From a virus, in IMG/VR virus record IMGVR_UViG_3300012944_000012: DNA of 43,534 nt; one strand, given 5' to 3'. Position numbers and translations under genes: made by a program. This document shows positions 1 through 43,534 of this stretch, one piece after another. Within the stretch, counting starts at the first letter, position 1, and every line of letters starts with the position of its first letter. The notes below the pieces were generated by a model, which did no database searches, was not told the DNA's origin, and saw nothing but the letters and a program-made list of their open reading frames with translations.

Positions 1-123
1 AATACCAAGCTGCTATCGACGCGCTGGGGCTGACCCAAATCGGCGCGGCGCGGTTTCTCAAGATCGGCGAGCGAACCTCGCGCCGCTATGTCGCGGGCGG
101 TACCATCCCCTATGCCGTCGAAC
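1..123. repeat. Terminal direct repeat, identical to 43412..43534. Overlap of a circular or circularly permuted molecule with a 43,411-bp unit.
   Basis: Compared base by base; all 123 nt match. An ORF continues in frame across the junction. Confidence 0.95.
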
Positions 124-179
124 TGTTGTTCAAGCTGATGCTTGACCGTGGCATCATGCCGAAGGAAATCAGCAAATGA
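3..179 (+). CDS. 3-prime part of the junction-spanning small HTH protein. The full gene is 43372..43534 joined to 124..179 (72 aa).
   Basis: Frame is continuous with the ATG at 43372. Product [50 protein letters not shown]... has an XRE-like HTH. Its TGA (177..179) overlaps the recombinase ATG (ATGA). Confidence 0.7.
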
Positions 180-817
180 CGAAACCGGCCATTGCCTACA
201 TCCGGGTTTCCAAAGCCAGCCAAGGCCGCTCCGGGCTTGGTCTGGAAGCGCAGCAATCCGCCATTGAGCGGTTTTGCGCGGCCGAGGGTTTCGAGGTGAC
301 GCGGCAATTTGTCGAGGTCGAAACCGGCAAGGGCGCGGACGCGCTGGAGCGCCGCCCGCAACTTGCCGCCGCTCTGGTGGCCGCGCGCAAAGCCCAAGGC
401 CCCGTGATCGTCGCGAAGCTGGATCGGCTATCGCGCGATGTCGCGTTCATTGCCGGCCTGATGGCGCAAAAGGTGCCGTTCATCGTCGCCGAGTTGGGCG
501 CGGACTGTGATCCGTTCATGCTGCATATCTATGCCGCGCTGGCCGAGAAAGAGCGCTGCATGATTTCGCAGCGGACCATTGCCGCGCTGGCCGCCGCCAA
601 GGCGCGCGGCAAGGTGCTGGGCAATGCCAAGCAAGCCGCCGCCAACCGCGACGACGCCGACGCGTTTGCTGAAAGCATCCGCGATCAGGTGATGCCGGTG
701 ATCAATCTGTCGTCGCGCCGCATCGCATCGTATTTGAACGATCAAGGTGTGATGTCGCCGACCGGCAAGCCGTGGCAGTCCGCCAATGTGTTGCGCTTGG
801 TCGAACGGCTGAAATAA
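176..817 (+). CDS. Small serine recombinase (resolvase/invertase type).
   Basis: N-terminal [10 protein letters not shown] catalytic-Ser motif, KLDRLSRD motif and a C-terminal HTH-like tail; 213 aa. Confidence 0.9.
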
Positions 818-5626: not shown

Positions 5627-5846
5627 CGATTTTCTTGCCCCGATAGATGGCTTGCGCAAGATGGATTTTTTCCAGCGCCGCGATCAGGATTTGCTCGATA
5701 TGCTCCAGATCGCCGGCCGCGAGGCTTTCAAAGTTCGGCCGCAGAAACATTTGCTCCGCATGGCGCGCGCACATATCGGCCCCGGCCGCGATGCCGTGCA
5801 GATGCGGCTTTACCTTGGCATCCCACTGGTCCAGCGGCAGGCTCAT
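5619..5846 (-). CDS. Hypothetical protein.
   Basis: Start at MSLPLDQW, with ATGA overlap on the upstream gene. Confidence 0.5.
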   Translation of the reverse strand: MSLPLDQWDAKVKPHLHGIAAGADMCARHAEQMFLRPNFESLAAGDLEHIEQILIAALEKIHLAQAIYRGKKIDA

Positions 5847-6277
5847 GACGGCCCCTTGCGCAGCGCCACCTTTTCCGCGATCCACGACCGCAGCACGTCG
5901 ATGTCGTCGCGCAGGATTTCATCTTTGCGTAAGCGCGCCGCGATCCGCATGAAGCCAGTATAGATCGTGGAGTGATCGCGCTCGCCCATCCGGATTGCCA
6001 TGTTGCCAAAGGTCAGCCGGGTCAGCTTGCGGCCGAGGTAATAGACCACCAGCCGGGGATGGGCATGGACAATCCGGTGCGAGTGCGACATCAGATCGAC
6101 CGGGTTGATGTCGTAAAACTCACACACCGCCGAGATAATTTCTTGCAGCGTGGGGCGGTTTTCGGACATGAAGCCGGTCAGCTTTTCCAGGACCTCGCCG
6201 TGTTGGTCGATGGTTTGCTGCATCGTTCGAAGCATCGCCCAAAGATCATGCGGCCGAGCGCCATCGGTCAGGGACAT
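5843..6277 (-). CDS. DnaA C-terminal (domain IV) HTH-only protein.
   Basis: HPRLVVYYLGRKLTRLTFGNMAIRMGERDHSTIYTGFMRIAARLRKDE matches the DnaA domain IV pattern (R..AMYL.R.LT..S...IG..FG.RDHTTV). No AAA+ part is present. Confidence 0.75.
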   Translation of the reverse strand: MSLTDGARPHDLWAMLRTMQQTIDQHGEVLEKLTGFMSENRPTLQEIISAVCEFYDINPVDLMSHSHRIVHAHPRLVVYYLGRKLTRLTFGNMAIRMGERDHSTIYTGFMRIAARLRKDEILRDDIDVLRSWIAEKVALRKGPS

Positions 6278-6305
6278 GACAGATACCCCTTGCCGCGCCC
6301 GGATG

Positions 6306-6542
6306 TTAAGCCGCGCGCTTGTTCGGTTTTTCGAAGCCCCGCATTTTCCAGAGGTGGGGAGGTGCACTGTAGCCACGCCGCCGCAATTCGCGCTCCATGA
6401 CGGCATAGGTATCGGAGGGGAACGCCTCGAAATACCCGTGCCAGTTCCAGACCGCCTTGGGCTTGGCGTGCGTCAGTTCGGCAACTTTTTCGTCACCGCC
6501 GAGGGCATCGATCACCTCTGTCACGCTGGTCAGCCTACGCAT
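6306..6542 (-). CDS. Cro-like small DNA-binding regulator (putative).
   Basis: 78 aa, first gene of the minus-strand early operon, divergent from an XRE repressor gene. Confidence 0.6.
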   Translation of the reverse strand: MRRLTSVTEVIDALGGDEKVAELTHAKPKAVWNWHGYFEAFPSDTYAVMERELRRRGYSAPPHLWKMRGFEKPNKRAA

Positions 6543-6669
6543 GGCCGCTAGCCTACCTCCAAAATTCTTGGGGGTGCAAGGGAAATTTTTGGGAGGATTT
6601 CGATAGGCTCTAACCGCCTAGTCCATTTTTAGACTTTCCAAGTATTTTGGTTTGTGCAATTTTGGCGGG
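6543..6669. promoter_or_regulatory. Divergent immunity-switch region with box B palindromes.
   Basis: CCAAAATTCTTGG at 6559..6571, CCAAGTATTTTGG at 6638..6650, and a degenerate GGAAATTTTTGGG at 6581..6593. Confidence 0.6.
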
Positions 6670-7002
6670 ATGGAGATCGAGCCAATCAACGCTGACGAAA
6701 GTAAATTGATCGCCCGCCGCCTGAGAGTGATCCGCACCTTGGTCAGCGGAGAGAACCAAGCGGCGTTTGCGCGGATGCTTGGCATCTTCCCCAACCGCTG
6801 GAACAACTTTGAGCGCGGCTCGCCGCTGACGCTGCGGGTGGCCTTCCTATTGGTCAAGACCGTTGACGGATTGTCCGTGAGCTATATTACCCACGGAAAG
6901 ACCGGCGACCTTCCCAAGGAGCTACGCCGTCAACTGGCGGCCTTGGAAGCCGAGCTATTTCCGCTTTCCTCGTCAAGGTCCAAGCGGTCGCCAAAGACGT
7001 AA
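6670..7002 (+). CDS. XRE-family HTH repressor (CI-like, putative).
   Basis: LIARRLRVIRTLVSGENQAAFARMLGIFPNRWNNFERG is a classic XRE HTH. Divergent from the Cro-like gene. Confidence 0.7.
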   Translation: MEIEPINADESKLIARRLRVIRTLVSGENQAAFARMLGIFPNRWNNFERGSPLTLRVAFLLVKTVDGLSVSYITHGKTGDLPKELRRQLAALEAELFPLSSSRSKRSPKT

Positions 7003-7112: not shown

Positions 7113-7305
7113 TGGCTTGGCCCTCACACGTCAAGGTTTCCCGCCCCTTTCCCTGCCTGCTACGCTACGCCTGACCGATCCGTCCGGCCACCAAAAATTG
7201 AAAAAATCTGCCGGGAATTATTTTGCCCCAAAATTGTTTCCCGGTCTTGCGTGACCAAATTTTTTGGGTGTAGGCTGGCCCGGTTCGCGCAAGGAGGAAG
7301 CCGCC

Positions 7306-8313: not shown

Positions 8314-8769
8314 ATGCCGATCATCGATCCAAGGGACTTTGAAACGCCAGCCCTGCCGGAAGTGGTTTTGGCAGCGTTCCGGAGCGTGCCGTACATCACG
8401 TTTCCGGGGCTGGCGCGGTTGCTCAACATGCACAAGCGAACGCTCGCCAAGCATGTTGGAAAAACCGATAGGTTGCCGTGGCGGCAAAAGGGAACGGGTC
8501 CGAAAAAGCCCCACCGGGTTTTCACCCTGTCCGATGTCGCGATGATTTGGCATGGCATGACCAAACAGGGGGACCAATGTCAAAATCAGACCTCATCGGC
8601 AAGCGCGTCAAGCGATCCAGAGAAACCTCGCCGTTCATCTATCGTTTTTCTATCGACGGTCACAAATTCCAAGGCACCACCGGCACCACCGACAAGGTCA
8701 CGGCCGAAGCCTATGCCGAGAAAAAGTTCCAAGAGGCGAGCGCCATCGCCGCCAAGGAGCGCCAGCTAA
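8314..8769 (+). CDS. HTH protein, excisionase-like (putative).
   Basis: FPGLARLLNMHKRTLAKHV...VFTLSDVAMIW. The ORF has no stop until 8769, so its low-complexity tail overlaps int by 193 nt. Confidence 0.45.
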   Translation: MPIIDPRDFETPALPEVVLAAFRSVPYITFPGLARLLNMHKRTLAKHVGKTDRLPWRQKGTGPKKPHRVFTLSDVAMIWHGMTKQGDQCQNQTSSASASSDPEKPRRSSIVFLSTVTNSKAPPAPPTRSRPKPMPRKSSKRRAPSPPRSAS

Positions 8770-9734
8770 ACAATGTGCCGATGACGTTCGGCATGGCCTG
8801 CGACAAGTGGCTAACCGGCAAGGCCACCCGGTTACGGGAACAGGGATTGCAGGAACAGGCCGCTTGGCTGCGCAAGCAGATTGGGGACACCAAGCTGTTG
8901 CAGAACATCCGCAAGGGCGACATTTCGGCGATGGTGGCGGCGCGGGCCAAATGTTTGCGGCCGGGCATCGACGGCACGTTTCGGCGGATCGCGGATAGCA
9001 CGGTCAACAAGACCACCCGGCTGATGCAACGCATCTTGAACTATGCCGAGAGCAATCATGACGCCATCGTGAAGCGGTTTGCGTGGAAGGATTTTTTCAT
9101 CAAGCTGCCAAAGGCCCGCCCGGCCAAGCGCGCGGTGTCGCCGGCCAACGAGCAGATTATCTTGGGCACCATTGCCGCCGATTATCTCGACCTCGCCCGC
9201 TTCGCCATCATCGGCGGCTTGCGCGCCTCGGAAAATCTGCTGCTTTGGGACCAAGTCGATTGGGGCAATAACAAGCTGCTGGACGTGGTTGGCAAGGGGC
9301 ACCGCGAGGGCCGCGACGTGCCGATGGGGCCGGCCGAAATGGCGATCCTGCGGGCGCAATACAACCGCACCGACCGGCACCCGACGCACGTCTTTACCTA
9401 TGTTGCCAAAAAGACCGGCAAGATTCCGCGCACGGATCGCTCGACCATCAAGGACAAGCGATATCCGATCACCTATGCGGGCTGGAAATCCGAGTGGGAG
9501 GAAATGCAGCAGGCGACTGGGCTTAAGGTCCGCATCCACGACCTCCGTCACACGGCGGTAACGCGGGCGCTCCAGCGCACCAACGGCAATCTGCCGGCGG
9601 TGCGCGACATGGTTGGACACGCCGACGGCAAAACCACGCTGCTCTATTGGGATGGCGACGAGCAGGCGGTGCGCGATGCCAAGGACATCGGATTTGTCCC
9701 CAAAGCTGTCCCCAAGCGCAAAAAGACCGGCTAA
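8577..9734 (+). CDS. int: Tyrosine integrase.
   Basis: C-terminal HDLRHTAVTR...VRDMVGHADGKTTLLY (R-H-R-Y catalytic pattern). Start at MSKSDL with an AGGGGGA RBS. Confidence 0.9.
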   Translation: MSKSDLIGKRVKRSRETSPFIYRFSIDGHKFQGTTGTTDKVTAEAYAEKKFQEASAIAAKERQLNNVPMTFGMACDKWLTGKATRLREQGLQEQAAWLRKQIGDTKLLQNIRKGDISAMVAARAKCLRPGIDGTFRRIADSTVNKTTRLMQRILNYAESNHDAIVKRFAWKDFFIKLPKARPAKRAVSPANEQIILGTIAADYLDLARFAIIGGLRASENLLLWDQVDWGNNKLLDVVGKGHREGRDVPMGPAEMAILRAQYNRTDRHPTHVFTYVAKKTGKIPRTDRSTIKDKRYPITYAGWKSEWEEMQQATGLKVRIHDLRHTAVTRALQRTNGNLPAVRDMVGHADGKTTLLYWDGDEQAVRDAKDIGFVPKAVPKRKKTG

Positions 9735-9976: not shown

Positions 9977-10195
9977 ATGCCGTCGTCACAGGCCGAACTT
10001 TTCCCCGCCACCGTCACCATCGGCACGCTGGCAATGCTGCCCGAAAAGCAGCCGTGCTATTGCCGGAAGGCGGACAAACACCACCATGTCAACGAGCATG
10101 TGTTCGACGGCCGGCGCTGGATCATGACGTGCTCACAGGCCGGGATCGACCTGATGGCCGAGATCAGCGGCGCCGCTTCTTCTTGCCGGCTTTGA
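9977..10195 (+). CDS. Hypothetical 72-aa protein next to attP.
   Basis: GGGAGA RBS 6 nt upstream; strong third-position GC. Converges with, and overlaps by 32 nt, the XRE gene. Confidence 0.45.
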   Translation: MPSSQAELFPATVTIGTLAMLPEKQPCYCRKADKHHHVNEHVFDGRRWIMTCSQAGIDLMAEISGAASSCRL

Positions 10196-10454
10196 GCGGA
10201 GCCTCGCTCTCCTTGGGGGCCTTCTCCTTGGGAGCCTTGGCGAGGCCAAGCGGACTGCCGTCATCGGCGCACTGAAACCGCAGCCCCGCACCCTCGAACG
10301 CCCGGTTGATCGCCAATAAATTATTGGTATGGGGAACACGCCGTCCGGCTTCGAAATCGCGGATCGTGCTGCTCGATACCTGAGCCTTGCTGCCCAAGTT
10401 CGCTTGCGACCAATTCAGCCACGCGCGGGCCGCTCTGCATTGTTCCGGTGACAT
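10164..10454 (-). CDS. XRE-family HTH regulator with a Lys-rich tail.
   Basis: MSPEQCRAARAWLNWSQANLGSKAQVSSSTIRDFEAGRR matches the HTH_XRE pattern. Confidence 0.8.
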   Translation of the reverse strand: MSPEQCRAARAWLNWSQANLGSKAQVSSSTIRDFEAGRRVPHTNNLLAINRAFEGAGLRFQCADDGSPLGLAKAPKEKAPKESEAPLKAGKKKRRR

Positions 10455-10810: not shown

Positions 10811-11314
10811 ATGGCGATCAAGAAACTCACTTTTTCATTTGACGTGCCGCTAACCAGTCTGTTGAGCCTGATCGCGGCCGGGCAAGCGGATTTGCGGATC
10901 GACGTACTGGGTGACGACAAACCGCTATCCGCAAAGGCTCTGGCCGCCGCTGGCATTTCCGGGCTGCTGCCAAGGCCGCACGGCCATACCGACGTAACGC
11001 GCTCGCGCGGCATCGATGCCTCCGGCAATCGAAAAACCGCGAAGGCCGCCATGCTGGAGGGCATGGCGAAGGCGGCGGGCCACACCATGACGCTCGCGCA
11101 GATGCGACCGCTTGTCGCGGCGCTGGGCTTGTCCCCGGCTTCGGCCAACTCGCAAATCAGCTTCATCACCAAGAAGGGATGGGCCGAAACGACAGAGCCC
11201 GGCAAACACCGGCTCACAGAGTCCGGCCTTACGGAGTGCGCGCGGCGCGGCTTCGACGTAATCAAACCCCCAAAGACCAAGAAGGCCGTCAACGGCGCGG
11301 TGCACCATGGGTAA
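10811..11314 (+). CDS. Hypothetical protein with a possible C-terminal winged helix.
   Basis: 167 aa, CAAGAGGGGCAA leader; first gene of the plus-strand operon. Confidence 0.6.
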   Translation: MAIKKLTFSFDVPLTSLLSLIAAGQADLRIDVLGDDKPLSAKALAAAGISGLLPRPHGHTDVTRSRGIDASGNRKTAKAAMLEGMAKAAGHTMTLAQMRPLVAALGLSPASANSQISFITKKGWAETTEPGKHRLTESGLTECARRGFDVIKPPKTKKAVNGAVHHG

Positions 11315-11657
11315 GAGCAACGGTCACAAGCGCAAGGGCGCGCTGGCGCTGTACCGCTCTTACAATTTCGTTGACAAAGACCCGGTGATTGATCGCATCC
11401 GGACCATCGTCCAAGACGAGGGGCTTTCCTACAAGGACATCCACGTCATCAGCGGCGTCTCGACCGCGACGCTGACCAACTGGTTCGACGGCGAAACGAG
11501 GCGACCGCAATATGCCACCGTCGCCGCCGTCACCTCCTCGCTGGGCTACAAGCAGGAGTTCGTCAAAAGCCAGAAAGATCGATTTCGAGCGCGAGATCGT
11601 CAAAGCACAGCGCGAGATCGAGGCGGCGGCCAAGGGCCGATAACACAGGGGGACTAA
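11307..11657 (+). CDS. HTH DNA-binding protein (putative); the 3-prime end may be frame-disrupted.
   Basis: IHVISGVSTATLTNWFDGETRRPQ is HTH-like. After about 11575 the +1 frame has much better third-position GC (see findings). Confidence 0.6.
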   Translation: MGKSNGHKRKGALALYRSYNFVDKDPVIDRIRTIVQDEGLSYKDIHVISGVSTATLTNWFDGETRRPQYATVAAVTSSLGYKQEFVKSQKDRFRARDRQSTARDRGGGQGPITQGD

Positions 11658-11661
11658 GCAG

Positions 11662-12066
11662 ATGGCACCAAGGAAAAAGAGCGTGAAAAAACACAACGCG
11701 AACCAGCGCGGCACCAAGGACAGTGACGGGATCATTGGCAACCGGATACGCGCCTACCGGATCGAGCGCGGCCTGTCGCAAGAGCAATTGGGGATCGCGC
11801 TGAAAGTTTCGTTCCAGCAAATCCAGAAATACGAAAAAGGCACCAACCGGCTGTCGGCGACGCGCTTGATCGAGACGGCGAAGATCATGGGCGTCACCCC
11901 GCACGATTTGCTGGGCTGGAACGGTGCCGGCGTCAAGCTTGGCAAGGCCATCGACGTTGAAAGCTTCAAGCTGGCGCAGGAGTTCTGCGGTCTGCGCGAT
12001 GGCTTGAAACCGGCGTTCCGCAATCTGATCGAAACGGTGATGAAGGAAAAAACAACGCGCGCCTGA
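11662..12066 (+). CDS. XRE-family HTH regulator.
   Basis: IGNRIRAYRIERGLSQEQLGIALKVSFQQIQKYEKGTNRLSATRL is a canonical XRE HTH. Confidence 0.85.
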   Translation: MAPRKKSVKKHNANQRGTKDSDGIIGNRIRAYRIERGLSQEQLGIALKVSFQQIQKYEKGTNRLSATRLIETAKIMGVTPHDLLGWNGAGVKLGKAIDVESFKLAQEFCGLRDGLKPAFRNLIETVMKEKTTRA

Positions 12067-27914: not shown

Positions 27915-28205
27915 TCAAGCCGGCTCGTCTTCGGGTTGTTCCGGTGGTGCGCGGCCCGCATAGGCCAAGTCCTCCGGGTTGGCGTCCTCTGGTTTGGTGG
28001 TGTCGCGCGGTCGCAGTGAGGCCGCATGGCCTTCGTGGCCCGGCAGTTCGAACAGCCGGTTGTTTTCCAGCATGAAGATAATCCCCGCGTCCTGCTCGTC
28101 GTCGAGGTCAATGCTCTGGCCGTCGAAAAAGGTCTTGCCCTGCACCTCGATCACTTTGCTGTCGCCTTCCGGCGCGTGATAGATCGCCTGCACCTTGTTG
28201 GACAT
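27915..28205 (-). CDS. Hypothetical acidic protein.
   Basis: 96-aa ORF, last gene before the terminator. Confidence 0.6.
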   Translation of the reverse strand: MSNKVQAIYHAPEGDSKVIEVQGKTFFDGQSIDLDDEQDAGIIFMLENNRLFELPGHEGHAASLRPRDTTKPEDANPEDLAYAGRAPPEQPEDEPA

Positions 28206-38571: not shown

Positions 38572-38714
38572 TGACCGCGCCGCGCCAGAGCAGGCTTGGC
38601 AGTGAAGCGAACCAGCGTCACCTTGGCGCGGTGCTTGGCCGCGCGGATCAGGCTCGCCTTGTCGCTATAGCTCACCGGCTTGCGGCCCTGATTATTTTTC
38701 TTCGCTTTCCTCAT
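38568..38714 (-). CDS. Possible 48-aa basic protein, translationally coupled to terS.
   Basis: MRKAKKNNQGRKPVSYSDKASLIRAAKHRAKVTLVRFTAKPALARRGQ. AAAGAGG RBS; its stop overlaps the terS GTG (GTGA). Below the ORF-track size cutoff. Confidence 0.35.
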   Translation of the reverse strand: MRKAKKNNQGRKPVSYSDKASLIRAAKHRAKVTLVRFTAKPALARRGQ

Positions 38715-38724
38715 CATTGCCTCT

Positions 38725-38753
38725 TTACAGACTAGGCCATTTTGGCCTATGTT
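38725..38753 (+). promoter_or_regulatory. Promoter-like element with a perfect box A in the spacer.
   Basis: TTACAG, 17-nt spacer, TATGTT. TAGGCCATTTTGGCCTA at 38733..38749. Confidence 0.5.
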
Positions 38754-38796
38754 GTTTTCGACGGCGCAACACCGCGCCAGCGCAAGGGGAACTGAT

Positions 38797-38949
38797 ATGC
38801 ACGATCAAGCAACCGAAAGCGCCGTTGAGCGCGCAATGAACCGGCTCGACGCTCGCCTGATGGCTCACGAGCTAACGCAATCGGAGTATGATCGCGAGGT
38901 CGCCACCTTGGATAAATGGGCACAAGCCCAATATCGTTGCCTGATCTAA
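38797..38949 (+). CDS. Hypothetical 50-aa protein.
   Basis: CAAGGGGAA leader upstream of the ATG. Confidence 0.6.
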   Translation: MHDQATESAVERAMNRLDARLMAHELTQSEYDREVATLDKWAQAQYRCLI

Positions 38950-38966
38950 ACGCAAGGGGAACCAAA

Positions 38967-39227
38967 ATGAAAACGGTCAAGATCGAAACCATCAAGGCGC
39001 GGGCTAACGAAACATTTCGCGGTAGCGTTGACGAGATGTCGATCCAACGGCGCGCAATTCAGTATTTCGTTTCTGATCTATTAATGAAGCACAACGCTTA
39101 TAAAGGCTTTCGATATCTGGAGGCGCACGATGTCGAACCGGGCAAATCGTTCGGGCTAATCCGCAACAACGAACAACCGGAAGGCCCGCATACTTTCCCT
39201 GATGATAGTCGCATCGCCTTCCTATGA
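38967..39227 (+). CDS. Hypothetical protein.
   Basis: 86 aa. The GCAAGGGGAACCAAAATG leader is identical to the one at 41743..41760. Confidence 0.65.
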   Translation: MKTVKIETIKARANETFRGSVDEMSIQRRAIQYFVSDLLMKHNAYKGFRYLEAHDVEPGKSFGLIRNNEQPEGPHTFPDDSRIAFL

Positions 39228-39249
39228 CCGCGATCAAATCGCGACATCA

Positions 39250-39275
39250 AAGCCCGGCATTGTCCGGGCTTTTTC
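39250..39275 (+). terminator. Rho-independent terminator.
   Basis: GCCCGG-cattgt-CCGGGC followed by TTTTT. Confidence 0.8.
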
Positions 39276-39315
39276 TTTGCCTGAAAATAATTTCAGTTTT
39301 CTTGACTAGGCCATA

Positions 39316-39344
39316 TTGACCTAACCCAAATAATTTGGTTATGT
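39316..39344 (+). promoter_or_regulatory. Sigma-70-like promoter carrying box A and box B.
   Basis: TTGACC, 17-nt spacer, TTATGT. Box A at 39307..39323 overlaps the -35; box B at 39326..39338 fills the spacer. Confidence 0.55.
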
Positions 39345-39374
39345 CCCCTCACGAACAACGCAAGGGGATTTTTA

Positions 39375-39668
39375 ATGTTCGATCACAACGCCATGAACGA
39401 GCTAAAGCATGTCGCCGCTGACCGCTATCAGCGCAACGGTTGCGGCGGCGCTCACAAGGTGCATGCAACATCCGTCGCCTATGACAAGGCGCACGGCTAC
39501 GGCGAGATGACGCCGTTTCGGCAAGCGGTCTATCGCGCGCGCATGCAATACAAGGTGGCTTGCGACAACGCGCGGAGCGATTTCTCTTTCGCTCCGGTCG
39601 CCTTCGATCTCGCCAAGGAAGAAAGGCGGGAGGCCGCGCGCTATGCGCTCGCATCCATCCCTTTCTAA
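39375..39668 (+). CDS. Hypothetical protein.
   Basis: 97 aa with a CAAGGGGA leader. Confidence 0.6.
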   Translation: MFDHNAMNELKHVAADRYQRNGCGGAHKVHATSVAYDKAHGYGEMTPFRQAVYRARMQYKVACDNARSDFSFAPVAFDLAKEERREAARYALASIPF

Positions 39669-39813
39669 CCAAACCGAGTTGCCGGCCACCGAGCCCCGCA
39701 TCGCCGAAACCCTGCAACGGCGCGCCAATGCGCCATTGCTTCCCGCAAAACCGCAAATCCCATGTGATGCCGGATTGTTCGGCGACACGCCAAACCAGAA
39801 GGAAATGTTCTGA
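39643..39813 (+). CDS. Possible 56-aa protein.
   Basis: MRSHPSLSNQTELPATEPRIAETLQRRANAPLLPAKPQIPCDAGLFGDTPNQKEMF. GGGAGG RBS. Fills the gap to the next gene (TGATG junction). Below the ORF-track cutoff. Confidence 0.35.
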   Translation: MRSHPSLSNQTELPATEPRIAETLQRRANAPLLPAKPQIPCDAGLFGDTPNQKEMF

Positions 39814-40082
39814 TGTCCAAGACCTTCACTTATTTTACTGATCCCGGCCATGGTTGGCTCAATGTCACCACGGCCGATTGTCTTGATGTCGGTTTGCTTT
39901 CCAGCGATTTCAGCCGCTACTCGTACCGCCGCGCTGAAAAACTCTATCTGGAGGAAGATTGCGACGCGCCGAAGTTTATCACCGCCTATACCGCCAAGCA
40001 TGGCGCGGCACCAACGATCAAGCAAAGCCACACCAACGGCAATAGCTTGATCCGGACGCAAGCGCGGATCAATCCCGCCTGA
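39813..40082 (+). CDS. Hypothetical protein.
   Basis: 89 aa, MSKTFTYFTDPGHGWLNV.... Confidence 0.65.
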   Translation: MSKTFTYFTDPGHGWLNVTTADCLDVGLLSSDFSRYSYRRAEKLYLEEDCDAPKFITAYTAKHGAAPTIKQSHTNGNSLIRTQARINPA

Positions 40083-40104
40083 TCGAAACCGACTCTGACA
40101 ATCC

Positions 40105-40133
40105 AAGCCCGGCCGATTGTGCCGGGCTTTTTT
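40105..40133 (+). terminator. Rho-independent terminator.
   Basis: AAGCCCGGC...GCCGGGCTT followed by TTTT. Confidence 0.8.
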
Positions 40134-40171
40134 GTGCCCGAAATTTATTGGCTGTTTTCCACTAGGCCATC

Positions 40172-40201
40172 TTGACCGCTAGGCCATTTTGGCAGTATGC
40201 T
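40172..40201 (+). promoter_or_regulatory. Orphan promoter-like element with no ORF downstream.
   Basis: TTGACC, 18-nt spacer, TATGCT. Box A copies at 40163..40179 and 40180..40196. Confidence 0.45.
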
Positions 40202-40488
40202 GAAAGATTGCGGTTGCGCCGAACCGGCCAAAACGCGGTATCAAATAACCGCCAATAGCAAGCCCGCCCATGCGTTATTTCCACAAGCCCGCTACCTCAC
40301 TAACCAAAAAATTTGGGCGCACGGGCGAGGCTGCTAATCTGTCAACCAAATTATTTGGGACATACCCCAATTATTTTGGGTTCACTCACTTGACAGCTAG
40401 GCCATTTCGACCTAGCCGCGACGCGGCCTGATTTGCAACTATATTGCGCCAACATCCAAATATTTTGGTGAAAATGTCGGCTCCATGA

Positions 40489-40562
40489 GAGAGTCACCCA
40501 TGCGTTATTTTTCGGTTTTGATACCAGAGTAAGGCGGAAATGTTCGCCGCCCGGTGACTCTC
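40489..40562. other. Candidate structured RNA/DNA element inside the ORF-free tract.
   Basis: A 10-bp perfect stem: GAGAGTCACC (40489..40498) pairs with GGTGACTCTC (40553..40562). It encloses an inner GGCGG/CCGCC hairpin. Confidence 0.3.
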
Positions 40563-40695
40563 CTATTGTGTCAAGTCCTTGCAGCCAAAATATTTGGGTT
40601 GATGTCGCGGCGCAATCGACGCAGCCGTACCCGCACCGATTTGCGCGCTGTAACATTTTGTGACCAAATTTTTTGGATATCCCCTCTAGGCCGTA

Positions 40696-40724
40696 TTGAC
40701 CTATAGGCCATTTTGGCCTATCAC
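40696..40724 (+). promoter_or_regulatory. Sigma-70-like promoter of ardC with tandem box A copies.
   Basis: TTGACC, 17-nt spacer, TATCAC. Box A at 40687..40703 and a perfect TAGGCCATTTTGGCCTA at 40704..40720. Confidence 0.55.
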
Positions 40725-40757
40725 AGGATCAACGCAACGCCAGCAAGGGGAAACCAA

Positions 40758-41633
40758 ATGGCAAACCTTTACACTGATGTCACCGCCCGCATCCTCGCCG
40801 ATCTCGAAAACGGCACCGCGCCATGGGTCAAGCCATGGTCCGCGACGCCGGGTAACAACGTGCCGCACAACGCCGCGACCGGCCGGCCCTACTCCGGTTG
40901 CAACGTGGTGCTGTTGTGGCTGTCGCACGGCCGCTTCGCCTCGCCGCGCTTCATGACCTTCAAACAAGCCAAGGAACTGGGCGGCAATGTCCGCAAGGGC
41001 GAGCACGGCTTTACCGTGTATTTCGTCAAGCCGATGACCGGCAAACCCAAGGACGGCGAAACCGAGGGCAAGGCGTTCACCATGCTGCGCGCCTATACCG
41101 TGTTCAATGTCGATCAGTGCGAAAATCTGCCGGCGAAAATCCTCAACGCGGAGCCGGTCAAGCCGCGCCACACTGACGAGCGCGACGCCACCATTGACGA
41201 GTTCATTGCCGCCAGCGGCTGCGATTTCCGCGCCGATGTCGGCGGTGACAGGGCCTATTACAGCCCGGCCGGGGACTTCGTCGCCATGCCGGCGTTCGCC
41301 GCGTTCCGCTCCGCTGCCAATTACTACGCGGTGGCGTTTCATGAGATGGGCCATTGGACCGGCCACGCCTCGCGCTTGGATCGCGATCTAAAGAACCGTT
41401 TCGGAACCCGCGCCTATGCAGCGGAGGAACTGGTGGCCGAACTGACCGCCGCGTTCTTGTGCGCCGAGTTCAGCATCGACGGCGAGATACGCCATGCCGC
41501 TTACATCAAATCATGGATCGAACTATTGAAGGACGACGCCCGCGCGTTCTTTACCGCCGCCAGCGCCGCGCAAAAAGCCGCCAGCTTCCTGCGGGATCGC
41601 GTGCTCGCCGAGCCGGTGGCGCTCGCCGCCTGA
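40758..41633 (+). CDS. ardC: ArdC-type antirestriction protein (ssDNA-binding N-domain plus zincin metalloprotease C-domain).
   Basis: N-terminus ARILADLENGTAPWVKPW...YSGCNVVLLW (DUF1738-like). C-terminus AFHEMGHWTGH, an HExxH motif typical of ArdC. Confidence 0.9.
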   Translation: MANLYTDVTARILADLENGTAPWVKPWSATPGNNVPHNAATGRPYSGCNVVLLWLSHGRFASPRFMTFKQAKELGGNVRKGEHGFTVYFVKPMTGKPKDGETEGKAFTMLRAYTVFNVDQCENLPAKILNAEPVKPRHTDERDATIDEFIAASGCDFRADVGGDRAYYSPAGDFVAMPAFAAFRSAANYYAVAFHEMGHWTGHASRLDRDLKNRFGTRAYAAEELVAELTAAFLCAEFSIDGEIRHAAYIKSWIELLKDDARAFFTAASAAQKAASFLRDRVLAEPVALAA

Positions 41634-41641
41634 TCTTAAAG

Positions 41642-41669
41642 AGCCCGGCCATGGTGCCGGGCTTTTTTA
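41642..41669 (+). terminator. Rho-independent terminator.
   Basis: AGCCCGGC...GCCGGGCT followed by TTTTT. Confidence 0.8.
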
Positions 41670-41693
41670 TTGGATGATTTCGACTAGGCCATA

Positions 41694-41722
41694 TTGACAT
41701 GCCCCAAATTATTTGGATATAA
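41694..41722 (+). promoter_or_regulatory. Sigma-70-like promoter with box A and box B.
   Basis: TTGACA, 17-nt spacer, ATATAA. Box A at 41685..41701; box B at 41704..41716. Confidence 0.6.
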
Positions 41723-41757
41723 CAGGACATCAACACAGCGAAGCAAGGGGAACCAAA

Positions 41758-41970
41758 ATGTACGATCTAGCCCATGAAAACCAAGCACCCGGCCGGTGCG
41801 GCAAGTGTCGCGGGACCGGCGTCTATGGCTGGGGCGCTTGTGTCAACGGCAAGATGCAAAATTCCGGAACCTGCTTTTCGTGCCGTGGCACCGGCCAACA
41901 GGATACCCGCCAAATCAGGCGCAACCATACCTATAACCGTTACAAGATCGCGGCGATTGCCCGGCTCTGA
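41758..41970 (+). CDS. 70-aa protein with two DnaJ-type CxxCxGxG zinc-finger motifs.
   Basis: CGKCRGTG and CFSCRGTG motifs; conserved leader upstream. Confidence 0.65.
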   Translation: MYDLAHENQAPGRCGKCRGTGVYGWGACVNGKMQNSGTCFSCRGTGQQDTRQIRRNHTYNRYKIAAIARL

Positions 41971-41977
41971 CTCAACC

Positions 41978-42000
41978 GCCCCGGCGCAAGCCGGGGCTTT
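41978..42000 (+). terminator. Rho-independent terminator.
   Basis: GCCCCGGC-gcaa-GCCGGGGC followed by TTT. Confidence 0.7.
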
Positions 42001-42009
42001 CCAATTATT

Positions 42010-42038
42010 TTGGCGACACGGCCAAAAAGTGCTAGTAT
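42010..42038 (+). promoter_or_regulatory. Weak promoter-like element overlapping a box B copy.
   Basis: TTGGCG, 17-nt spacer, TAGTAT. Box B at 42001..42013. Confidence 0.35.
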
Positions 42039-42064
42039 GGCGCGCGAAGCAGGAAAAACACCAA

Positions 42065-42274
42065 ATGGCTACCATGATTACCGAAGTTTACGACGCCTTC
42101 AAAGCTGCGGGAGTGGATGACGACAAAGCGCGCAAGGCCGCCGAGGCCATCGCTTCCTATGAGACGAGATTCCACGATCTTAAATCCGACATGGCGGTTT
42201 TGAAATGGATGGTCGGCACCAATATTGTCCTAACACTTGGCGCACTCGGCAAGTTGCTGGCCATGAAGCTGTGA
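42065..42274 (+). CDS. Small protein with a C-terminal TM anchor.
   Basis: MATMITEVYDAFKAAGVDDDKARKAAEAIA...MAVLKWMVGTNIVLTLGALGKLLAMKL. Confidence 0.6.
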   Translation: MATMITEVYDAFKAAGVDDDKARKAAEAIASYETRFHDLKSDMAVLKWMVGTNIVLTLGALGKLLAMKL

Positions 42275-42390
42275 CGAAGCCGCGCGATATCCTGTATCTG
42301 ATGCCGATCATTGCCGTCGTGTCCGCCATGATTACAGGCGCGGCCATCTTTGCCGCTGGCATGGCCTTTATGAAATTCTTGGGCGGCTGA
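42271..42390 (+). CDS. Possible 39-aa single-TM protein.
   Basis: GTG overlaps the upstream stop (GTGA). ...MPIIAVVSAMITGAAIFAAGMAFMKFLGG. Confidence 0.4.
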   Translation: MTKPRDILYLMPIIAVVSAMITGAAIFAAGMAFMKFLGG

Positions 42391-42413
42391 TACCAACCGC
42401 ATCGATGTTGCGC

Positions 42414-42442
42414 AAAGCCCGGCTATAAAGCCGGGCTTTTTC
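42414..42442 (+). terminator. Rho-independent terminator.
   Basis: AGCCCGGCT-ataa-AGCCGGGCT followed by TTTT. Confidence 0.8.
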
Positions 42443-42456
42443 TTGGTCCGGCCATC

Positions 42457-42485
42457 TTGACCTATCGGCCAAATTGGCCTATACC
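42457..42485 (+). promoter_or_regulatory. Sigma-70-like promoter with tandem box A-like palindromes.
   Basis: TTGACC, 17-nt spacer, TATACC. Box A-like copies at 42448..42464 and 42465..42481 (core GGCCAAATTGGCC). Confidence 0.55.
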
Positions 42486-42517
42486 GTGTCAATGCCAACC
42501 AACGAGGGAAAATCGAA

Positions 42518-42796
42518 GTGACCAACAGCGAAATCAAAACCGGGATCGGCGGCACGGTGTTTGCGGGGCCGGATGCCGTCAAACTGTTTCAGGCCATGAC
42601 CATTGTCAGCGGCTTGCGGCTGTATGCCAAACACCGCATCCAGCCGAGCCGGGGTTACACGCCGAGCGCCATGCTCAAAGCCGCCAGCGGCTTTACCGGC
42701 AAGGCTTACAAGCGCGGCGCATACCAACAGGCCGCCGACGATTTGAAGCTGTGGGCCGACACCATGGCCGCCGCGCTGCCGGTGACAAAATCATGA
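42518..42796 (+). CDS. Hypothetical protein.
   Basis: 92 aa, GTG start preceded by an AGGGAAAA leader. Confidence 0.6.
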   Translation: MTNSEIKTGIGGTVFAGPDAVKLFQAMTIVSGLRLYAKHRIQPSRGYTPSAMLKAASGFTGKAYKRGAYQQAADDLKLWADTMAAALPVTKS

Positions 42797-43375
42797 GGCG
42801 GAGCGTCGTAATTCCGGAACGCATGGCGCACTTGCCATTGGACCGGCGCGGTTATCCGATATTTTTCGGCGCCTTCGTTGAGCCGGACGGCACGCCGCAT
42901 TTCACCATTAATTCCGAGGTCGAAGCGCGTCGAAATGATCGCGCGCGATTTGTGCTCTATCTGCGGCAAGACGCTGTTGCGTGGCCGCTGGTTCATCGGC
43001 GGCCCCCGCTCCGCGTTCCATAAGCGCGGCGCTTATATCGACATGCCGACCCATGCCGAGTGCGCGCATTATGCGTTGCGGGTTTGCCCGTACCTTGCCG
43101 CGCCGAGCTACGCCCGCGAGGTCGGCAAACGCAAGGCGGAAGCCGTCAAGGCCGGCGTCATTGCCATCGATCCAACCATGATCCCGGAACGGCCGTTGCT
43201 GTTCGTGGCGTTGATGGCAGTCGGCCAAAGCATGACCGGCAGCAATGGCTTTCAAAGCTACGTCAAGCCGCACCGCCCTTATCGCAAAATCGAGTACTGG
43301 CAGCACGGCGAGCAATTGCCGGACGCGCTGGGCCGGATGCTGGCAACCGATTTCATGAAGGAAGATGCAGCATGA
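42793..43375 (+). pseudogene. Frame-disrupted paralog of 12097..12741, needing a +1 shift between 42901 and 42953.
   Basis: The N-part (42793..43023 frame) aligns to residues ~10-55 of the paralog. The C-part (42878..43375 frame) aligns from the CxxC motif onward. The Phe-to-Cys distance is 52 nt (17 codons plus 1), matching the paralog spacing. Confidence 0.55.
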
Positions 43376-43534
43376 CCAAGAAACCGAAAACCAAGCGCAT
43401 GAGCGCCGAGCAATACCAAGCTGCTATCGACGCGCTGGGGCTGACCCAAATCGGCGCGGCGCGGTTTCTCAAGATCGGCGAGCGAACCTCGCGCCGCTAT
43501 GTCGCGGGCGGTACCATCCCCTATGCCGTCGAAC
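43372..43534 (+). CDS. 5-prime part of the junction-spanning HTH protein (continues at 124..179).
   Basis: The ATG overlaps the upstream stop (ATGA). See feature 3..179. Confidence 0.7.
   Translation, partial: MTKKPKTKRMSAEQYQAAIDALGLTQIGAARFLKIGERTSRRYVAGGTIPYAVE
43412..43534. repeat. Terminal direct repeat, identical to 1..123.
   Basis: Base-by-base identity. Confidence 0.95.

Follow-up and report, generated by a model that had tools for sequence, protein, structure and literature searches.

The window analysed here is the whole of the IMG/VR virus record IMGVR_UViG_3300012944_000012 (43,534 nucleotides). From 38715 onwards, on the + strand, it carries an array of mini-operons in which a 17-bp palindrome, box A, overlaps the -35, the spacer or the -10 of seven of the eight promoters. 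A helix-turn-helix (HTH) protein of 72 amino acids (aa), HTH72, is encoded at the far end of this array, and we believe that it probably represses the box A promoters by negative feedback, its own promoter included. The array is best described as a series of Aca-like, operator-marked accessory mini-operons with joints similar to those of the promoter-early stem-loop (PeSL) cassettes. The window represents a complete, circularly assembled phage genome of ca. 43.4 kb with an exact 123-bp direct terminal repeat (1-123 = 43412-43534), which means that it is circular and that the array runs on over the assembly junction. Starting divergently from the small-terminase operon, the array passes 42520 with the open reading frames (ORFs) orf92 and orf76/orf146, crosses the junction within the gene of HTH72 (43372 to 179) and ends at ca. 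0.8 kb with a small serine recombinase (176-817).

Box A and its position within the promoters

Box A (TAGGCCA-N3-TGRCCTA, with TAGGCCATTTTGGCCTA as the perfect copy) was scored allowing up to two mismatches. There were 15 strand-matches at nine sites against 0.07 expected, a number that was never attained in shuffled sequences, and a tenth site at 40180 (TAGGCCATTTTGGCAGT) has three mismatches, in the right arm. All ten lie inside 38733-42481. An earlier reading of the letters alone (the original prediction) had listed ten start positions for this palindrome and had confined it to a stretch of 3.8 kb, and every one of its coordinates is right; outside the array we found just two lone half-sites, at 27961 and 37374. 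The exact palindrome is present in only 60 stretches among the 2.9 million viral contigs of IMG/VR.

The same reading had proposed that a single change in the right arm, from TGGCC to TGACC, converts the palindrome into a TTGACC -35 box, with a second palindrome filling the spacer before a -10-like hexamer. Checked base by base, this is what happens in five promoters, where the change yields TTGACC or TTGACA (39316, 40172, 40696, 41694 and 42457), followed by a spacer of 17-18 nt occupied by another box A or by a second operator family, box B, and then by a TAnnnn hexamer. When 72 box A sites from 19 contigs were examined, TTGACA (with at most one mismatch) ended precisely 2 nt upstream of 30 of them, the chance rate of a -35 at a fixed offset being ca. 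0.5% per site, and the derived -10 consensus (TAtatn) started at the final two bases of box A. Within the array all sites have one orientation and a fixed promoter register. The conservation of the two arms, together with a central N3 that is free to vary, is the signature of a site for a dimeric protein.

HTH72, the candidate box A repressor

By tblastx, HTH72 is the only protein that the window has in common with an otherwise unrelated contig (L029/L050) provided with the same double-box promoter. Along the same lines, tblastn detected HTH72 homologues of 36-46% identity in another five contigs with box A. There the register of box A is again TTGACA-NN-TAGGCCAnnnTGGCC-TAtatc, and as many as seven promoters of a contig show it. 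As a control for circularity, seven contigs were fetched purely by HTH72 protein homology and then scanned for box A. Five of the seven have box A (up to two mismatches) at upstream promoters of the small-gene array that carries the HTH72 homologue, with five promoter sites in L066, four in L068, three in L069, two in L067 and one in L072; the baseline from shuffled sequences was 0.09 sites per 20 kb. Upstream of a cultured homologue, that of Bradyrhizobium phage ppBeUSDA76-2, stands a double palindrome of variant sequence (TAGGGCC...). Neither HTH72 nor box A is present in L063, a relative with the same array, ardC and recombinase, or in the more distant relative L080. Wherever the gene exists among the genomes compared (four out of four), it stands behind a double-box-A promoter (P8 in the window) whose -35, spacer and -10 are all covered. 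In the window it is the last small gene both of the array and of its operon.

The AlphaFold2 model of HTH72 is a five-helix XRE HTH with a predicted local distance difference test (pLDDT) score of 90. The closest folds, with template modelling (TM) scores of 0.6-0.8, are the C-terminal domains of MqsA (0.74/0.80) and HigA2 (0.70/0.74), Aca1, Aca2, Aca7 and Aca10 (0.58-0.68) and the controller protein C.Kpn2I. A profile of the family recovers 674 proteins, mostly of 63-75 aa, that are unnamed or called YiaG, XRE or VapI. The commonest Pfam match in the family is the MqsA_antitoxin HTH (30 of 93 members), and its putative recognition helix, RTSRRW/Y, is nearly invariant, which fits the unusually conserved half-site of box A. 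A phmmer search of all PDB chains, including Aca1, Aca2, Aca7 and Aca10, gave no relevant match to HTH72 at E<=10. The genes ahead of HTH72 in its own operon (orf92 and orf76/146) have no assigned function, and ardC is in a neighbouring operon under the same operator.

What the sequence shows is the statistics, register and conservation of the motif, its co-occurrence with HTH72 and a predicted fold. From the co-occurrence we infer binding, and the sign and the timing of the control are inferred as well: HTH72 is probably an Aca-like negative-feedback repressor of the box A promoters. In the mechanism that we propose, composite joints would split the array into mini-operons, each joint consisting of an intrinsic terminator and, 20-45 nt on, a consensus-like promoter for the host sigma-70 with a strong Shine-Dalgarno leader (GCAAGGGGAA). 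On entry, the host RNA polymerase would fire all eight promoters together. HTH72, produced from the last operon, would accumulate and bind box A as a dimer, the copy in the spacer covering the start of the -10 and a half-degenerate second copy supplying the -35 in five promoters. It would in this way block access to the core promoters, that of its own operon among them, and the expression of the array would be capped or shut off as a pulse. This would amount to negative feedback of the Aca type stretched over a whole array, anti-restriction gene ardC included. Through box B the array is probably coupled to another regulator as well, which may be the prophage immunity repressor. The repeated joints border genes with a fast turnover among relatives.

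Several points weigh against this interpretation. The link between HTH72 and box A is, at the level of sequence, correlative, and as HTH72 homologues are common in these arrays their co-occurrence with the operator could partly reflect a shared ancestry of the module. In L070 and L071, the remaining two contigs fetched by protein homology, box A is found only in versions with 3-4 mismatches, at the promoter of the HTH72-containing operon. The HTH72 of the window falls below every Pfam and NCBIfam threshold, and its Foldseek E-values are weak (0.09-0.5), as is usual for HTH domains of ca. 65 residues. At least five other HTH proteins encoded in the window are possible binders of box A. Of the eight promoters, a generic promoter scanner that requires a T at the last -10 position picked out P1 and P3 alone; besides, several -10 hexamers are poor by the consensus of E. 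coli. Apart from ardC and orf70, the ORFs of the array had no family match in Pfam, PHROG and NCBIfam and no plasmid or structural match either, and ArdC is the only product with a recognisable function among the cargo. Lastly, the double-box pattern was also met in a genome collection, in three contigs of metagenome-assembled genomes (L076, L077 and L078) labelled Verrucomicrobiota, Phycisphaerae and Gammaproteobacteria. Box A was found in L078 only and an HTH72 match in none of the fetched stretches, and these mutually inconsistent labels are probably due to matches by chance or to phage contigs that were mis-binned.

Alternative explanations for box A

One alternative would be that box A is the operator of some other regulator (the immunity repressor, another HTH protein of the window or a host factor) and HTH72 a mere passenger. 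Co-occurrence does not imply binding, and the HTH genes at 6306-6542 (-), 6652-7002 (+), 10164-10454 (-), 11307-11657 (+) and 11662-12066 (+) provide candidates. We nevertheless regard it as unlikely. None of these five proteins is common to the unrelated box-A contigs, the comparison with L029/L050 having returned HTH72 alone, and there is no box A near their genes. Moreover, L063 retains the rest of the array yet has lost HTH72 and box A together, and a host factor would leave this joint loss of the site and a phage gene unexplained.

HTH72 could also bind box A as an activator or a dual switch that turns the array on, in the way of the controller (C) proteins of restriction-modification systems or of MerR-type spacer binders. 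The adjacent double operators do resemble C-box layouts, in which the distal site activates and the proximal one represses, and C.Kpn2I is among the fold matches. However, the -35 elements are already near-consensus and the spacers have the optimal 17 nt, so these promoters need no activator. The operator lies over the spacer and the first bases of the -10, as is typical of steric repressors, and the regulator gene would be the last one of the very array that needed activation. An activating role appears quite unlikely to us, and repression by HTH72 is the explanation that we prefer.

It is very unlikely that the palindromes act as RNA hairpins (in processing, attenuation or stability) or that they are inherited promoter duplicates with no regulator. 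TAGGCCAUUUUGGCCUA would form a 7-bp hairpin, a scanner rated 38733 as terminator-like, and the cassettes may plausibly come from duplication. But the sites are upstream of the predicted starts of their own promoters, genuine terminators already stand 20-45 nt upstream, and the two-fold symmetry is kept in unrelated phages with a different surrounding promoter sequence, with both arms conserved and only the centre varying. Finally, it is extremely unlikely that box A represents the recombination sites of the adjacent serine recombinase, in an integron- or shufflon-like exchange of cassettes, for although the start of the recombinase overlaps the stop of HTH72 and cassette content and order vary among relatives, the recombinase of L063 is 84% identical to that of L061 in a genome with no box A, unrelated box-A contigs have HTH72 with no recombinase adjoining, the sites of the array share their orientation and promoter register, and a 17-bp site with an odd 3-nt centre is ill-suited to the 2-nt staggered central cut of serine recombinases; the L063 control and the site geometry rule this enzyme out as the binder of box A.

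Box B, a second operator layer

Box B (CCAAA-N3-TTTGG), scored as CCAAA-WWW-TTTGG with up to one mismatch, was found 22 times genome-wide against 0.21 expected. Nine of the sites are in the array, six of them clustered at 40304-40664, upstream of ardC. Box B occupies the same spacer position as box A in P2 and P6 and overlaps the -35 in P7. Outside the array it is found at 6559, 6638, 7255, 8271, 10630, 10649, 14083, 14104, 14706, 15683, 37009 and 37028, these scattered sites being often paired ca. 20 bp apart. The pair 6559/6638 separates a Cro-like gene (6306-6542, -) from a CI-like gene (6652-7002, +), both with sub-threshold HTH matches, and the pair 10630/10649 is located between an HTH_3 gene (10164-10454, -) and a + strand operon with two more HTH genes; other sites stand right ahead of the genes at 7264 and ca. 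14170. Being distributed genome-wide and next to HTH genes, box B is likely the target of a second regulator, plausibly the prophage immunity repressor.

In L063 box A is fully replaced by box B, and four promoters read TTGACA-N4-box B-ATATAA. As the design is kept there with no box A, box A is a lineage-specific layer and box B the older, shared spacer element. The proposal that the array is under one common switch can be maintained in part: box A lies over seven of the eight promoters and recurs with one protein family in unrelated phages, but the operator families are two.

Promoters, leaders and terminators of the mini-operons

The features of the array are collected in Table 1. Terminators and promoters follow each other in five joints (T1/P2, T2/P3, T3/P6, T4/P7 and T5/P8), with gaps of ca. 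20-45 nt. The five terminators that had been claimed (at 39250, 40105, 41642, 41978 and 42414) are all supported by their folding energies, which range from -18.2 to -20.6 kcal/mol (z-scores from -3.0 to -4.1), the one at 41978 having only a short U tract. Similarly, the shared leader that had been noticed is real: its Shine-Dalgarno motif, GCAAGGGGA, has five + strand copies in the array against 0.43 expected, also at gene starts within cassettes, and the 18-mer GCAAGGGGAACCAAAATG recurs unchanged at 38952 and 41743. Other parts of the original prediction need to be amended. It described about eight near-identical cassettes and there are indeed eight promoters, but the similarity is limited to the shared motifs, two units are non-coding and P7 has only box B. 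It gave every unit one to three small ORFs, when the units of P3 (40172) and P4 (40390) have no conserved ORF. It also ended every unit in a terminator; five strong ones exist, but the last unit (42457 onward) has none inside the window.

Table 1. Location of the promoters, terminators, genes and non-coding units of the array in the window.
Feature	Position	Strand	Description
P1	38724..38753	+	TTTACA-18-TATGTT; perfect box A 38733-38749 in spacer; divergent from small-terminase operon; kept in L061, L073, L074
Cassette 1 genes orf50, orf86	38797..38949, 38967..39227	+	GCAAGGGGAA ahead of each
Terminator T1	39249..39277	+	-18.2 kcal/mol, z -3.1
P2	39307..39344	+	box A 39307-39323 carries -35 TTGACC (39316); box B 39326-39338 in 17-nt spacer; -10 TTATGT
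Cassette 2 genes orf97, orf56, orf89	39375..40082	+	
Terminator T2	40105..40135	+	-19.7 kcal/mol, z -3.5
P3	40163..40201	+	degenerate box A pair 40163 and 40180; -35 TTGACC at 40172; 18-nt spacer; -10 TATGCT; no ORF after
Non-coding inverted-repeat unit 1	40241..40347	+	box B at 40304 and 40346
P4	40390..40418	+	TTGACA-17-TAGCCG; box A 40398-40414 in spacer; no ORF after; kept in L061, L073
Non-coding inverted-repeat unit 2	40468..40583	+	box B on both sides, 40456 and 40585
P5 (ardC promoter)	40648..40724	+	conserved upstream GTAACATTTTGTGA; box B 40664; box A 40687-40703 with -35 TTGACC (40696); perfect box A 40704-40720 in 17-nt spacer; -10 TATCAC
ardC (291 aa)	40758..41633	+	
Terminator T3	41640..41670	+	-20.6 kcal/mol, z -3.8
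P6	41685..41722	+	box A 41685-41701 with -35 TTGACA (41694); box B 41704-41716 in 17-nt spacer; -10 ATATAA
orf70, four-CxxC zinc-ribbon protein	41758..41970	+	
Terminator T4	41978..42000	+	strong stem, short U tract; -20.5 kcal/mol, z -4.1
P7	42001..42038	+	box B 42001-42013 over -35 TTGGCG (42010); 17-nt spacer; -10 TAGTAT; no box A
orf69 and orf39 (hydrophobic)	42065..42390	+	
Terminator T5	42414..42445	+	-20.1 kcal/mol
P8 (regulator operon promoter)	42448..42485	+	box A 42448-42464 with -35 TTGACC (42457); box A 42465-42481 in 17-nt spacer; -10 TATACC
orf92, orf76, orf146	42518..43375	+	latter two overlapping or frameshifted
HTH72, candidate box A repressor, 72 aa	43372..43534, continues to 179	+	passes through 123-bp terminal repeat
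HTH72 3' part	1..179	+	1-123 repeats 43412-43534
Small serine recombinase	176..817	+	last gene of P8 operon; start overlaps HTH72 stop (ATGA)

Some of the leaders could fold next to the Shine-Dalgarno motif. In the P2 leader (39345-39368) a CCCCT pairs with its AGGGG, and in the P1 leader (38763-38780) a GGCGC...GCGCC stem is placed just 5' of it, a stem that is kept in the leaders of L061 and L063. A possible role for such hairpins would be translational control or stabilisation of the mRNA. Another motif, GTAACATTTYGTGA, is found at 40648-40663, just upstream of box-A promoters in the lineage of the window, and also in unrelated HTH72-bearing contigs (L069 ca. 8925, L067 ca. 9675 and L079 ca. 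1315), including Bradyrhizobium phage ppBeUSDA76-2; judging from this recurrence it may be a further conserved promoter-proximal element. In the P8 operon, a 76-aa ORF (42793-43023) overlaps by ca. 90 nt, in another frame, an ORF of 146-165 aa (42878/42935-43375). This is either a frameshift (an assembly error or a real one) or two overlapping genes, and none of the four relatives compared below has a homologue of either ORF.

The stretch of 560 nt upstream of ardC is free of ORFs and contains P3, P4, six box B sites and two paralogous inverted-repeat units of 105-120 nt each, with a constant internal spacing of 73-74 nt. The units are kept in L061, L073 and L074 and nowhere else among the fetched loci. 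Their symmetry is real, as in an inverted-repeat model of 22 pairs 77% of the cells pair, and sliding the partners lowers this to 26-45%. Shuffles matched this model, and covariation was no better than in shuffles. RNAalifold gave a weak energy of -7.5 kcal/mol with one covarying pair, and the claim of a structured RNA family was dropped. At gathering thresholds Rfam had zero matches over the whole window, and a permissive scan of 38600-42600 gave sub-threshold matches on terminators only. The units may be a structured leader, a non-coding RNA or a protein-binding DNA element.

Modularity of the array among relatives

Relatives were found through the exact-palindrome scan of IMG/VR, small-terminase anchoring and exact-protein look-ups. 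Two of them, L022 and L049 (= L061 and L062), are 73-78% identical to the window and both belong to the set of 60 palindrome stretches. The 13 ORFs of the window were compared across five genomes, the window itself plus L061, L063, L073 and L074. The small terminase, the orf97-orf56 pair, ardC and the recombinase form a core present in all five, HTH72 is present in four, orf70 in three (window, L061 and L063) and orf86 in two (window and L061). More than half of the ORFs (seven of 13: orf50, orf89, orf69, orf39, orf92, orf76 and orf146) are unique to the window, and their slots hold other ORFs in the relatives.

In L061, L073 and L074 (57-76% protein identity) box A, box B, the Shine-Dalgarno leader and the terminators recur at syntenic places, and alignment of the ardC promoters (five genomes) and of the HTH72 promoters (four genomes) shows that both boxes and the -35 are kept and the flanks diverge. 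The array is thus modular, as had been suggested, with its promoter, terminator and Shine-Dalgarno joints kept in four relatives while the above seven ORFs are found only in the window. For the contig of P0157 (JGI 3300041966) we used the gene table only: ardC precedes the orf97 homologue there and follows orf97 in the window, which points to rearrangement of whole cassettes. Some gene replacements, on the other hand, cross cassette boundaries. The pair formed by HTH72 and the recombinase, with stop and start overlapping at 176-179 (ATGA), is kept in L061, L073, L074 and L075.

Cargo genes

The gene at 40758-41633 can be securely assigned from its sequence to the ArdC anti-restriction proteins, with both domains present: the N-terminal, ssDNA-binding ArdcN (PF08401, 1e-36, 126 bits against a cutoff of 22.6) and the C-terminal zincin metallopeptidase domain MPTase-PolyVal (PF18818, 4e-48, 163 bits against a cutoff of 27.5). 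The product also matches phrog_7245 (4e-87), and its translation has an HExxH-like motif, FHEMGH. In a DNA search against GenBank phages ardC alone was matched, at 67-72% identity, in Caulobacter phages. ArdC had been considered the only recognisable product of the region, but HTH72 (with its XRE fold), the four-CxxC zinc-ribbon protein orf70, with weak matches to the zinc-finger region of DnaJ, and the serine recombinase can be recognised too. Orf97 has 40 homologues, all from the lineage of the window; its model has a pLDDT of 77 and a predicted TM score of 0.49, and there was no match in BFVD better than E 3.7. Nothing was found when orf97 and orf70 were searched by tblastn against PLSDB, which gives no support to a gene pool shared with plasmid leading regions. 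Early expression of the array and an anti-defence or host-takeover role for its orphan ORFs, as suggested in the original prediction, are possible; ArdC is the sole functional anchor.

The arrays of other HTH72 contigs carry genes with LPD29, DUF3768, DUF2958, DUF6927 and HD_4 domains. Several of these, like the peptidase domain of ArdC, belong to the "polyvalent proteins" of phages and conjugative elements, which is suggestive.

Comparison with known systems

Aca1 and Aca2 repress strong anti-defence promoters by negative feedback (PMC6765145, PMC9410906), and for Aca proteins a reach of up to three adjacent anti-defence operons has recently been predicted (PMC13551039). The array is similar in having a small, putatively dimeric HTH protein, encoded distally in an operon that it would control, and a palindromic operator inside a strong promoter. 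The proposed logic is also alike, a burst on entry followed by shut-off, and Aca1, Aca2, Aca7 and Aca10 rank high among the folds that HTH72 matches. The differences are that HTH72 has no sequence similarity to the solved Aca proteins, that the array contains no known acr gene and has ArdC as its only known cargo, and that one operator extends over seven promoters (up to 7-9 in other contigs) instead of one to three, in a fixed spacer/-10 register, with box B interleaved and two of the putatively controlled units non-coding.

The other close parallel is with the PeSL cassettes of T4-type phages described by Arbiol, Comeau and colleagues (PMC2839356, PMC4122927), composites of a terminator stem-loop and an early-type sigma-70 promoter that are repeated between small unassigned ORFs. 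There too the gene content between motifs differs among close relatives, suggesting shuffling at the joints. However, PeSLs were described in lytic T4-like myoviruses and have no repressor operator, whereas the present array belongs to a temperate, P22-like phage and has putative operators of one or two regulators at its joints. With these cassettes and the multi-operon Aca regulators as precedents (PMC2839356, PMC4122927, PMC13551039), such a density of mini-operons is not as unusual for a phage as had been thought. What is new here is the regulator family, the highly conserved operator with its fixed register, the number of promoters under putative control and the second operator layer.

Other systems are similar in some respects only. 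The HTH domains of XRE antitoxins (MqsA and HigA2) are the best structural matches of HTH72. MqsA binds a short palindrome with few central bases and represses its own expression. However, HTH72 matches only the C-terminal HTH portion of that family (TIGR03830 positions 61-118, 16.6 bits against a cutoff of 61.8), with no N-terminal zinc domain and no toxin partner, its neighbours being orf146 and the recombinase. As to the C proteins, no restriction-modification gene was found in the array. In the kil-kor system of the incompatibility group P (IncP) plasmids RK2/RP4, and with the phiC31 repressor and its conserved inverted repeats, many dispersed operons have near-identical promoters and short palindromic operators of small global repressors; the RK2 operons include the anti-restriction-like klcA, and two repressors act at the same promoters. 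The KorC operator of RK2, which we take to be a 17-bp palindrome starting TAGGGC, would be like box A and its Bradyrhizobium variant. IncP is, however, a plasmid system and not a phage, and no homologue of KorA, KorB or KorC was detected in the window. The morons of lambdoid phages are also single genes or small sets with their own promoter and terminator among phage genes, but these have usually been inserted independently of each other, their promoters are unrelated and the prophage often expresses them, whereas the units of the array are contiguous and share one operator grammar.

It is possible, although we hold it as a tentative and rather doubtful proposal, that HTH72 and box A belong to a regulator-operator family that is large (at least 674 proteins, with a nearly invariant recognition helix and half-site), has so far gone undescribed and acts as a feedback switch on entry-phase arrays in diverse, probably alphaproteobacterial, phages. 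If this were true, box A promoters would mark undiscovered anti-defence genes, and every box-A-driven gene would be a candidate entry-phase or anti-defence effector, by a guilt-by-association similar to that of Aca and anti-CRISPR genes. In the lineage of the window the switch would also drive the two ORF-less inverted-repeat units, which could act as regulatory or anti-defence RNAs or as a structured leader and not through proteins. Should HTH72 bind box A, hundreds of unnamed small phage HTH proteins would gain a function and an operator that can be searched for as plain DNA. The hunt for cargo would then reach poorly studied phages, related to those of Bradyrhizobium and Caulobacter, whose cargo is nearly all orphan. 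Multi-operon control of the Aca kind would be extended from two or three operons to at least seven, on which a further operator layer is superimposed, and the terminator-promoter joints would be a natural case, in a temperate phage, of gene exchange that leaves regulation intact.

Genome context

The window has a GC content of 60%. From 38.6 kb down to 15 kb its minus strand encodes the small and large terminase, portal, major capsid protein, tail proteins and endolysin, and the region 0.2-14.5 kb contains a tyrosine integrase, Erf, Gam, HNH nucleases and several HTH regulators (PHROG and Pfam scans). The phage is temperate and, from the P22-type portal and terminase of its relatives, P22-like and not T4-type. 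A search for tRNA and tmRNA genes found none. The tyrosine integrase (8478-9734) is present besides the small serine recombinase of the array, and a 187-aa protein (5843-6406, -) with a DnaA C-terminal HTH domain (PF08299, 2.8e-13) is the sole replication gene recognised in the genome.

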